DNA of 64,000 nt. It comes from Escherichia coli (GTDB lineage: Bacteria; Pseudomonadota; Gammaproteobacteria; Enterobacterales; Enterobacteriaceae). Of the stretch, positions 17,811 to 20,621 are shown piece by piece. The notes beneath the pieces were generated by a model. The model was not told the origin of the DNA. It saw only the letters and a list, made by a program, of their open reading frames with translations, and did no database searches. Within the stretch, counting starts at the first letter, position 1; every line of letters starts with the position of its first letter. The stretch is from the NCBI RefSeq assembly GCF_024298765.1, contig NZ_CP101210.1. The stretch is one strand, 5' to 3'. The position numbers were made by a program, and so were the translations under genes.

Positions 17811-17837
17811 CCCCCTCATGATGAGGGGGCTTTTTTT
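17811..17837. terminator. Terminator shared by the convergent yehA and rcnB
   Basis: Hairpin CCCCCTCATGATGAGGGGG at 17811-17829 followed by CTTTTTTT; sits between the yehA stop (17754) and the rcnB stop (17836). Confidence 0.65.
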
Positions 17838-18174
17838 AGCGATGATAAAAAATCTCACCGTCGTAGGCTTTAATGATTTTACCGTCGGTGTCGCTGATCA
17901 ACACGTACGCGCCACCCATATAGGTCCAGTGCGTCCCGGCATCAGGCGCGGGCAGGTTACGTAACTGCCACTGCTTAATGTTGTACTCATCGGTGCGGTA
18001 CATCTCTGGGACGGTATCGCCTGGTTTGAAATGCTTAAAGTCAGCAATGAAACTGCTTAACTCATACTTAGAAATTCCCGAGGTATTGGTCGAACCCGCG
18101 GTGGCTGGTGCGGCCCAGGCGGCATTGGTAACCAGCAAAAGCGCACCCAGCAACATCTTATTTTTAATGGTCAT
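17836..18174 (-). CDS. rcnB: Periplasmic Ni/Co homeostasis protein RcnB
   Basis: Start trimmed to MTIKNKMLLGALLLVTNAAWA (signal peptide), 112 aa; downstream of rcnA. Confidence 0.85.
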   Translation of the reverse strand: MTIKNKMLLGALLLVTNAAWAAPATAGSTNTSGISKYELSSFIADFKHFKPGDTVPEMYRTDEYNIKQWQLRNLPAPDAGTHWTYMGGAYVLISDTDGKIIKAYDGEIFYHR

Positions 18175-18392: not shown

Positions 18393-19217
18393 TTATCGCA
18401 TTATGCCCATGAAGCCATGTACGCCCATATACACACCGACTAAGCCAATCAACAGACTGGAAAAATAGGGGGCGCGTTTAGCGAGAGTGTTAAATCCGCT
18501 CCAGCGTTTTGCGACCTGCTGAACGCTGATTGCTGCGCCAACGCCTACGGTGACAAGCGTTAACGCCAGGCCAATGCTGAAACTGACGACCAGTGTTGCG
18601 CCCAGTGTCAGGGCTTTCAACTGAATGCAAATCAACAGCACGGTAATTGCTGCCGGACAGGGGATAAGACCACCTGTTAAGCCAAATAACAAAATTTGCC
18701 AGTTGGTGACCTCTCTACCATCAAAGCGTCGTTTAATATCATTGGCATGGGCTCGTGCATGGGCATCCTGATACTCGCCATGTTCGTGATGGTGATGATG
18801 TCCATGGTCGTGGTGATCTTCGTGATCGTGGTGATGATGTTCATGATCATACTCGTGCATATTCTCCAGCCAGTTGCGTTCGCCGCGCCAGGTACGCCAG
18901 AACATCCAGAACGCGGTGCCAATAATGATCACTGCGGAAATCAGCTGGAGCCACGGTTCTGCTGATTGAGCAGTAAAGCGCTTGCTGATCACCATCCCGC
19001 CAAAGGCAATTAACCAGACCACTGCGGTATGCGAAATAGTTGCTGCCAGTCCGAGCATCACCGCCTGTTTAATGGTGCCTTTGATGGCGATGATAAACGC
19101 CGCCATCATCGTTTTTGAGTGCCCTGGTTCCAGGCCATGAAGCGCACCAAGTAAGATGGCGCTGGGGATGAAGAACCAGGCGTTTCCTTGCTGAAGAAGA
19201 GTTGTAAATTCGGTCAT
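18393..19217 (-). CDS. rcnA: Nickel/cobalt efflux protein RcnA
   Basis: 274-aa membrane protein with a histidine-rich loop HEYDHEHHHHDHEDHHDHGHHHHHEHGEY. Confidence 0.95.
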   Translation of the reverse strand: MTEFTTLLQQGNAWFFIPSAILLGALHGLEPGHSKTMMAAFIIAIKGTIKQAVMLGLAATISHTAVVWLIAFGGMVISKRFTAQSAEPWLQLISAVIIIGTAFWMFWRTWRGERNWLENMHEYDHEHHHHDHEDHHDHGHHHHHEHGEYQDAHARAHANDIKRRFDGREVTNWQILLFGLTGGLIPCPAAITVLLICIQLKALTLGATLVVSFSIGLALTLVTVGVGAAISVQQVAKRWSGFNTLAKRAPYFSSLLIGLVGVYMGVHGFMGIMR

Positions 19218-19254: not shown

Positions 19255-19289
19255 TACTCCCCCCCAGTACCTGATACTACCCCCCAGTA
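19255..19289. promoter_or_regulatory. Two RcnR operator sites (TACT-G/C tract-AGTA) in the rcnA-rcnR divergent promoter region
   Basis: TACTCCCCCCCAGTA (19255-19269) and TACTACCCCCCAGTA (19276-19289) read directly; matches the known RcnR operator architecture. Confidence 0.85.
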
Positions 19290-19337: not shown

Positions 19338-19610
19338 ATGTCTCATACAATCCGTGATAAACAGAAACTGAAAGCGCGTGCCAGTAAGATTCAGGGCCAG
19401 GTCGTGGCGCTCAAGAAAATGCTCGACGAGCCGCACGAATGCGCTGCAGTTTTACAACAGATTGCTGCTATCCGTGGCGCGGTAAACGGTCTGATGCGGG
19501 AAGTGATTAAAGGTCATCTGACGGAACACATCGTTCACCAGGGGGATGAGCTAAAACGTGAAGAAGATCTGGATGTCGTTCTGAAGGTGCTGGATTCATA
19601 TATCAAATAA
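19338..19610 (+). CDS. rcnR: Ni/Co-responsive repressor RcnR (CsoR/RcnR family)
   Basis: 90-aa protein, divergent from rcnA. Confidence 0.95.
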
Positions 19611-19689: not shown

Positions 19690-19832
19690 TTATCATCGCA
19701 ACCAAACGACTCGGGGTGCCCTTCTGCGTGAAGGCTGAGAAATACCCGTATCACCTGATCTGGATAATGCCAGCGTAGGGAAGTCACGGACCACCAGGTC
19801 ATTGCTTCTTCACGTTATGGCAGGAGCAAACT
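19690..19832 (+). ncRNA. TPP riboswitch (thi-box) in the thiM leader
   Basis: Conserved thi-box core CTGAGA within GGGGTGCCCTTCTGCGTGAAGGCTGAGAAATACCCGTATCACCTGATCTGGATAATGCCAGCGTAGGGAAG, directly upstream of thiM. Confidence 0.9.
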
Positions 19833-20621
19833 ATGCAAGTCGACCTGCTGGGTTCAGCGCAATCTGCGCACGCGTTACACCTTTTTCACCAACATTCCCC
19901 TCTTGTGCACTGCATGACCAATGATGTGGTGCAAACCTTTACCGCCAATACCTTGCTGGCGCTCGGTGCATCGCCAGCGATGGTTATCGAAACCGAAGAG
20001 GCCAGTCAGTTTGCGGCTATCGCCAGTGCCTTGTTGATTAACGTTGGCACACTGACGCAGCCACGCGCTCAGGCGATGCGTGCTGCCGTTGAGCAAGCAA
20101 AAAGCTCTCAAACACCCTGGACGCTTGATCCAGTAGCGGTGGGTGCGCTCGATTATCGCCGCCATTTTTGTCATGAACTTTTATCTTTTAAACCGGCAGC
20201 GATACGTGGTAATGCTTCGGAAATCATGGCATTAGCTGGCATTGCTAATGGCGGACGGGGAGTGGATACCACTGACGCCGCAGCTAACGCGATACCCGCT
20301 GCACAAACACTGGCACGGGAAACTGGCGCAATCGTCGTGGTCACTGGCGAGATGGATTATGTTACCGATGGACATCGTATCATTGGTATTCACGGTGGTG
20401 ATCCGTTAATGACCAAAGTGGTAGGAACTGGCTGTGCATTATCGGCGGTTGTCGCTGCCTGCTGTGCGTTACCAGGCGATACGCTGGAAAATGTCGCATC
20501 TGCCTGTCACTGGATGAAACAAGCCGGAGAACGCGCAGTCGCCAGAAGCGAGGGGCCAGGCAGTTTTGTTCCACATTTCCTTGATGCGCTCTGGCAATTG
20601 ACGCAGGAGGTGCAGGCATGA
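19833..20621 (+). CDS. thiM: Hydroxyethylthiazole kinase
   Basis: 262 aa; ThiM family; overlaps the thiD start by 4 bp. Confidence 0.95.

Follow-up and report, generated by a model that had tools for sequence, protein, structure and literature searches.

The window, which is the whole 64-kb stretch of Escherichia coli DNA that was analysed, carries the three genes of a nickel and cobalt efflux locus:

17836 to 18174, minus strand: rcnB (112 aa), downstream of rcnA; its product is a periplasmic protein that assists efflux
18393 to 19217, minus strand: rcnA (yohM), 274 aa, a NicO-family permease for the efflux of Ni and Co
19338 to 19610, plus strand: rcnR, 90 aa, a CsoR/RcnR-family repressor that responds to Ni(II) and Co(II), divergent from rcnA

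RcnA matches the Pfam NicO profile PF03824 with an E value of 2e-69 (234.4 bits, cut-off 27.7), and the match is full-length, as residues 13-273 correspond to profile positions 1-285 of 287. RcnR matches PF02583 (E 3.5e-21, 75.8 bits, cut-off 22.8), and RcnB matches the RcnB profile PF11776 (E 7e-19). Several complete E. coli genomes contain the 1218 bp spanning rcnA and rcnR at 100% identity, in regions annotated as rcnA/rcnR, and of 5426 complete E. coli genomes 5369 have this region. The repressor is annotated as WP_000019944.1 in nearly all E. coli genomes retrieved, and genomes of O157:H7 and O111:H8 have an annotated rcnB in the corresponding place. The Pfam matches, together with the complete identity to annotated rcnA and rcnR, therefore identify the known rcnR-rcnA-rcnB Ni/Co efflux locus, and the sequence-only reading, which had named rcnA and rcnR from the letters of the window, was right in doing so. 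The RcnR translation carries His3, Cys35, His60 and His64, which we take to be the metal-ligand set of this repressor.

With rcnR divergent upstream and rcnB downstream, rcnA shares with rcnR an intergenic region of 120 bp. The K-12 locus rcnR-rcnA-rcnB (yohL-yohM-yohN) has the same genes, the same order, the same divergent layout and the same 120-bp intergenic region with both operators; in the K-12-type locus L012 the intergenic sequence is identical to that of the window, and the DNA identity over the 1218 bp is 98.9%. Export of and resistance to Ni(II) and Co(II) are known for K-12 RcnA, according to the literature cited in PMC7055735. Taken together, we put the probability at roughly 90% that the window holds an ordinary E. 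coli rcnR-rcnA-rcnB Ni/Co efflux module, with a loop in RcnA whose length varies in frame by slippage and with operators that are nearly constant. In such a module, RcnA would act as an inner-membrane exporter of the NicO family.

The most conspicuous part of RcnA is a histidine-rich segment:

18771 to 18857, minus strand: HEYDHEHHHHDHEDHHDHGHHHHHEHGEY, RcnA residues 121-149, with 16 His, 4 Asp and 5 Glu

This segment is the core of a 66-residue central loop (residues 109-174), which contains 18 His and is enclosed by hydrophobic stretches, with 7 K/R flanking it. Sixteen of the 22 histidines of RcnA fall in residues 121-149 (binomial P ~3e-19 at 2.3% His). A topology prediction for the NicO family has put the central loop in the cytoplasm (PMC11247825), and the cytoplasmic location that had been proposed for the loop in the window fits both this prediction and the K/R-rich flanks. 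The peptide quoted by the sequence-only reading is an exact match within 18740-18860, but it holds 16 histidines and not 17 as had been counted. A count of 17 is right for other alleles, among them the K-12-type loop MHGHDYEHHHHDHEHHHDHG... (L012), and it is also quoted for E. coli RcnA in PMC11247825. The two alleles differ accordingly in the loop, which reads MHEYDHEHHHHDHEDHH... with 16 His in the window and MHGHDYEHHHHDHEHHH... with 17 His in the K-12 type, while both proteins are 274 aa long. As a low-complexity run of His, Asp and Glu, the loop is probably disordered and is presumed to bind Ni and Co.

At the DNA level, the loop of the window is an imperfect repeat, for which Tandem Repeats Finder gave periods of 18, 21 and 9 with 64-78% matches, and 11-14% indels for the periods 18 and 21. 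The same program returned no perfect head-to-tail array in the allele of the window, while perfect arrays do occur in other alleles; compared with the O157-type or Salmonella alleles, that of the window is less prone to slippage.

The loop is bracketed by the two primer sites of an established E. coli typing locus, CVN007:

18589 to 18609, plus strand: CVN007 reverse primer site (ACCAGTGTTGCGCCCAGTGTC), exact match, 0 expected by chance
18937 to 18957, minus strand: CVN007 forward primer site (ACCGTGGCTCCAGYTGATTTC), exact match

On the window, this primer pair yields a 369-bp amplicon around the His loop. The primers are given in Table 1 of PMC8143711 as part of a generic E. coli typing scheme, which goes back to Lindstedt 2007 as cited in PMC8143711 and PMC3407997. 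By the formula in PMC8143711, the amplicon of the window corresponds to 'allele 3', as (369-314)/18 is ~3. Our literature search found no statement placing CVN007 in rcnA, so that the link comes from the primer mapping presented here, which ties CVN007 explicitly to the RcnA loop. CVN014 had first been suspected as the rcnA locus, and the primer table showed CVN007 instead.

The length of the loop was measured on the 369-bp stretch between these primer sites (18589-18957), and frequencies were taken from two systematic 60-row samples and from exact-match counts among ~5,360 complete E. coli genomes. With exact primer sites, samples among these ~5,360 genomes gave 14 in-frame length classes, from 333 to 450 bp. 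A systematic sample of 60 of 5363 genomes gave 48 amplicons in the 369-bp class, to which about 81% of the sample belong, in line with the 87% of isolates reported to carry CVN007 'allele 3' (PMC3407997). The same 60-genome sample contained nine in-frame variants (+6, -3, +15, +24, -15, -21, +57, +27 and +33), one 1-bp frameshift and one copy truncated by IS3, and the other 60-row sample, drawn on the whole 1218 bp, added variants of -36 and +81. The frameshift traces to a single assembly, CFSAN061772, which is present in both 60-row samples.

At the protein level, counting loop residues between WLEN and QDAHA, the loops at 18 loci of complete E. coli genomes measure 18-57 residues and contain 8-29 His; among these loci is that of an E. 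coli strain in which the 30-residue class is present as well. Among the best 120 protein clusters, 42 different loops of 23-56 residues were counted, and over the retrieved loci and these clusters the His content ranges from 8 to 32, i.e., four-fold.

The way in which the loop changes can be read from alleles whose repeats are perfect. Amplicons of the O157:H7 type measure 396, 402, 408, 414, 426 and 450 bp, all differing in steps of 6 bp, and their alleles carry a perfect (GACCAC)n array encoding (Asp-His)n with n = 6, 7, 8, 9, 11 and 15. The length variants within O157:H7 show no other difference, as their 98.7-98.8% identity is wholly due to the gap. In other alleles, (CACGAG)n occurs with n = 4 or 5 (L020, and L006 and L022), CATGAT is duplicated in the loop of E2348/69, and L004 has lost 36 bp, namely what lies between two CACGAACAT repeats in the K-12-type allele. 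The 6-bp steps of (GACCAC)n inside the O157:H7 clone indicate replication slippage, and slippage is strongly inferred as the mechanism by which the loop changes in length. The loop DNA consists of CAY/GAN hexamers (CAC-GAC, CAC-GAG and CAT-GAT) and longer imperfect repeats, in which whole codons are probably gained or lost by slippage, together with deletion between short direct repeats, while selection would purge frameshifts; the loop is therefore a variable-number repeat that stays in frame.

Besides slippage, two other sources of the length differences were considered. Recombination might shuffle a few old rcnA haplotypes, with slippage playing a minor part. There are indeed two haplotype families, ending in ...HGEY and ...HGDNEEY, separated by many linked substitutions with 90-95% DNA identity over the amplicon, and the allele of strain G12 (L008) has several flanking intergenic SNPs as well. 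However, the array of the near-clonal O157:H7 genomes differs in steps of exactly 6 bp and in nothing else, the 36 bp lost in L004 are those between two direct repeats, and single-unit mutation of the corresponding Salmonella repeat, STTR5, occurred within 50 generations in culture. Recombination between the ...HGEY and ...HGDNEEY haplotypes adds diversity, but it cannot explain 6-bp steps in one clone, and an account in which it does most of the work is improbable. Some alleles are old divergent haplotypes with many substitutions, which could spread by recombination rather than by slippage.

The second source, i.e., sequencing or assembly errors in repeats and homopolymers, is highly improbable as a general account of the length differences. 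The differences in the loop amount to 3-81 bp in multiples of 3, recur in many independent assemblies and are shared within lineages; moreover, loop lengths have routinely been measured by PCR as CVN007 and STTR5. Sequencing error cannot explain the variation of the loop, but some single-base calls at the operators discussed below may be due to it.

Length polymorphism of this loop is already known and is exploited for strain typing in E. coli, Salmonella and Klebsiella. In Salmonella, STTR5 has been reported as a CACGAC repeat inside yohM with single-unit changes within 50 generations (PMC5183578, PMC1781188), and a 54-nt (HD)9 block was lost from rcnA in passaged Salmonella (PMC6760104). STTR5 of Salmonella enterica thus shares with the O157-type (GACCAC)n array the gene, the loop and the hexamer (CACGAC, encoding His-Asp), and it likewise changes in frame and by single units. 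In S. Typhimurium, the array is highly mutable and long, with a median of 10 units and a maximum of 26, whereas the allele of the window has no perfect array and a single loop length is common to most E. coli. Typing locus 27 of Klebsiella pneumoniae has been described as a 6-bp repeat in rcnA with 0-19 copies (PMC3948817); it is a variable repeat of the same unit length in the orthologous gene, but with a different hexamer (CATGGT as published). The CVN007 scheme counts units of 18 bp, whereas the real changes are of 3, 6 and longer multiples of 3. More distantly, RcnA of cable bacteria has been reported to carry an expanded His loop of 100-123 residues with 33-53 His (PMC11247825), so that the same loop of the same family varies there in length and His content; in that case it is a large fixed expansion between distant taxa, and not a change of copy number within a species as in E. 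coli.

The intergenic region between rcnA and rcnR contains two candidate RcnR operators, listed without strand:

19255 to 19269: RcnR operator site 1, TACTCCCCCCCAGTA, TACT-C7-AGTA, with C7 at 19259-19265, nearest rcnA
19275 to 19289: RcnR operator site 2, TACTACCCCCCAGTA, TACT-A-C6-AGTA, with C6 at 19280-19285, nearest rcnR

The C7 tract lies where it had been placed from the sequence, and the C6 tract starts one base earlier than the 19281-19285 given for it. The two sites stand in a 20-bp register and are the only TACT-N7-AGTA matches in the 64-kb window; a search for TACTNCCCCCCAGTA gave 2 matches against 0.00 expected from 100 shuffles. Two TACT-G6-N-AGTA sites for RcnR have been described in the rcnR-rcnA intergenic region, and apo-RcnR binds the operator while Ni or Co releases it (PMC7055735, PMC3902906). 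Read on the opposite strand, both sites of the window fit the published TACT-G6-N-AGTA, as expected for a tandem RcnR operator; this is also the sequence recognised by E. coli RcnR among the type-1 operators of the CsoR/RcnR family. Following what the literature has established, apo-RcnR seated on these two sites, 20 bp apart, would repress both divergent genes. A promoter scan of the intergenic region gave two hits, neither of them credible, as in one the -10 element stops 2 nt short of the rcnA start codon and the other extends over the start of rcnR.

The operators are nearly constant. In a comparison over 95 bp, the band of at least 99% identity holds 3727 of 5345 genomes, which are identical to the window or carry a single one-base insertion, and most of the remaining genomes differ by flanking substitutions. 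The C-tracts vary in about 2.7% of genomes, leaving ~97% unchanged. By exact-match counts, C6 at site 1 occurs in 118 genomes and C7 at site 2 in 26, both figures being underestimates owing to flanking SNPs. The C7/C7 and three-operator alleles were found with longer flanks, and queries of 65 and 84 nt returned no match, likely due to low-complexity masking that left no 28-base seed. In the O157:H7 genome NE 1092-2, and in this genome only, a 20-bp tandem duplication creates a third site, and in one strain (L004) the AGTA of site 2 has become GGTA.

The sequence-only reading, which had pointed to length variation between strains, would have been refuted by its absence from both the loop and the operator tracts. 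Since both vary, it stands. The loop varies widely and in frame, and the operators, which it had called repeat-prone as well, are better called strongly conserved. Nor does the locus resemble a phase-variable contingency locus, as the loop stays in frame and the operator tracts are 6-7 bp long, unchanged in ~97% of genomes and conserved across genera.

The latter point comes from a cross-species pattern scan with one genome per species, in which the counts were taken from at least 16 tandem-site loci beside rcnR, so that they describe a sample and not a census; most matches of the scan arose by chance and were left out. In each of the 16 species among the matches listed, the pair of sites adjoins an rcnR homologue with 63-99% identity. 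The species sampled include Citrobacter, Enterobacter, Pluralibacter, Edwardsiella, Shewanella and Vibrio. Site 1 has C7 in 14 of the 16 species sampled, the distance from TACT to AGTA is 7 bp in 29 of 32 sites, and the same pair of C7 and A-C6 stands beside rcnR in 11 of the 16, as far as Vibrio. The exceptions in tract length were C6 in Citrobacter sp. R56 and C8 in Enterobacter sp. R1(2018); in Enterobacter sp. MGH 24, the gap from TACT to AGTA at site 1 is 10 bp, and 7 bp results only from an overlapping TACT. Half-site spacing in the CsoR/RcnR family is 6-9 bp, and the 6 bp of site 1 in O111 differ from the 7 bp of most rcnR-linked sites in the sample. The conservation of spacing across genera argues that the tracts are under constraint and not free to slip, and the operators would accordingly be held at a fixed geometry, with rare one-base variants.

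Among these variants, C6 at site 1 is best supported in O111. All genomes with a visible O111 serotype carry it, among them the RefSeq strain 11128, as does an O111:H8 strain picked via a separate query, and the names and accessions of the O111 strains suggest several independent sources, which speaks against sequencing error. As a rough baseline for error, 4 of 5228 genomes (11 at the very most) had an exact one-base deletion in a control C6 tract in yehI, compared with the 118 genomes with C6 at site 1 of the operator; the control is imperfect because the two tracts differ in length, and its flanks are polymorphic. The C6 allele of O111 is therefore taken here as real and lineage-fixed. Elsewhere, the calls are less secure. 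The O157:H7 strains EC4115 (C6) and TW14359 (C7) differ by one C alone, since they share their rcnA allele and the rest of the intergenic region is identical; the K-12 laboratory derivatives DTU-1 and ER2683 have C6, though the K-12-type L012 has C7; SS17, TT12B and Z1814 are further sporadic cases; and the three-operator allele is a singleton. The assembly OSUCMP42NDM is short of one base both in the operator tract and in the control coding C6 tract, so that some of the variation at the operators may come from sequencing error. As sporadic C6 does not follow descent, the scattered cases would be either very recent slippage or homopolymer miscalls.

A further possibility, though an unlikely one, is that the variation is adaptive, with loop copy number and operator tract length setting Ni/Co buffering or efflux and basal rcnA expression according to niche. 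In the two 60-row samples, 19 of the 20 length-variant rows are in frame, but change in frame only is also expected if frameshifts are simply removed. In favour of tuning, the His content ranges four-fold, and the literature on Salmonella reports a drift of STTR5 to mid-range lengths and speculates on function; our literature search found no functional study of loop or tract length, and one length accounts for 81% of the E. coli sampled. Furthermore, the loop of Enterobacter sp. Bisph1 is almost without His, and Vibrio has a different insert of ~90 residues, so that loop content differs widely between related genera, which suggests weak constraint. For the operators, C6 is apparently fixed in O111 and lies off the spacing kept across genera, which makes an effect on regulation plausible, but operator variants are rare and partly doubtful. 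Slippage within an otherwise ordinary efflux locus remains the preferred reading.

Given the constraint on the tracts, the O111 C6 allele may plausibly be a regulatory variant, judging from the sequence comparison. It is rather doubtful that the operator variants as a group (C6 in O111, C7 at site 2 in 26 genomes and the three-site allele in one O157:H7) are real regulatory alleles that shift the basal expression of rcnA and rcnR and, together with the loop repeats, tune Ni/Co handling by lineage, even though each of them alters a half-site spacing or a number of sites that is otherwise kept from Escherichia to Vibrio. If this were true, simple-sequence changes would tune Ni/Co homeostasis in a heritable way that differs from one E. 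coli lineage to another.

Beyond confirmation, the locus is of little import in itself, as everything in it, from the genes to the His-rich loop and the two operators, is textbook knowledge. Because the CVN007 primers map to either side of the RcnA loop, existing typing data can be read again as a record of natural variation in a presumed metal-binding segment. As well, the shortened site 1 of O111 offers a ready natural variant for how RcnR reads half-site spacing.

The RcnR operator carries three sites in the O157:H7 strain NE 1092-2, against the usual two, through a 20-bp duplication, and this strain is the sole carrier of such an arrangement among 5360 genomes.

L017 (locus of NE 1092-2) 1944-2083: 20-bp tandem duplication (TACTACCCCCCAGTACCTGA) at the RcnR operators

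Operator site 1 also differs within O157:H7, being C7 in strain TW14359 (L146) and C6 in strain EC4115 (L147), while the two strains have their rcnA allele in common and an intergenic region that is identical save for this one C. Both strains presumably derive from one 2006 outbreak and, if this is true, the one-C difference would come from slippage in the very recent past or from an error in sequencing.

A few strains have lost rcnA or carry a broken copy of it. An IS1 element in MS20675 (L013) occupies the place of rcnA, of rcnB and of part of rcnR and the yeh fimbrial genes. In 81EVA (H240) rcnA is interrupted by an IS3 element, and in CFSAN061772 (L001) it carries a 1-bp frameshift directly past the His loop. 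Any match to the rcnA-rcnR stretch of the window was absent from 57 of 5426 genomes. Among the 5380 matching places of this stretch, one is located on a plasmid rather than on the chromosome.

Among RcnA orthologues, the His/Asp run is missing from the central loop in Vibrio (L031 and L068), Edwardsiella hoshinae (L119) and Enterobacter sp. R1 (L086), where the loop is a non-repetitive insert of about 90 residues with the conserved motifs VVDTGHG...RF.LRTL...GYLES...GH..H.HDF, which looks like a folded domain. In addition, the RcnA loop of Enterobacter sp. Bisph1 (L037) is nearly without His.

The annotation of matching genomes, such as that of the locus L014, places a riboswitch and thiM after rcnR:

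window ~19702-19798: TPP riboswitch, directly downstream of rcnR
window ~19833-20621: thiM, downstream of rcnR with the TPP riboswitch

The genes that come after rcnR in O157:H7 (L017) are instead one for an outer-membrane protein and a hypothetical one, and thiM is absent from the next ~2 kb fetched past rcnR.

The window also contains a long C run in dgcE, a diguanylate cyclase gene, which is thereby broken into two overlapping ORFs.

window 62134-62143: C10 run in dgcE, inside ORFs 59238..62261 and 62023..62556, minus strand

This run is either a slipped long homopolymer or a miscall. A genome with an identical 111-bp stretch around the run has its dgcE annotated as "frameshifted", while the K-12-type strain RR1 reads AACACCCCCC, in frame and one base shorter than the window. 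Of the 39 sampled rows that matched over the full length, 35 likewise lack one base relative to the window, a 40th row being only a partial match and left outside this count.
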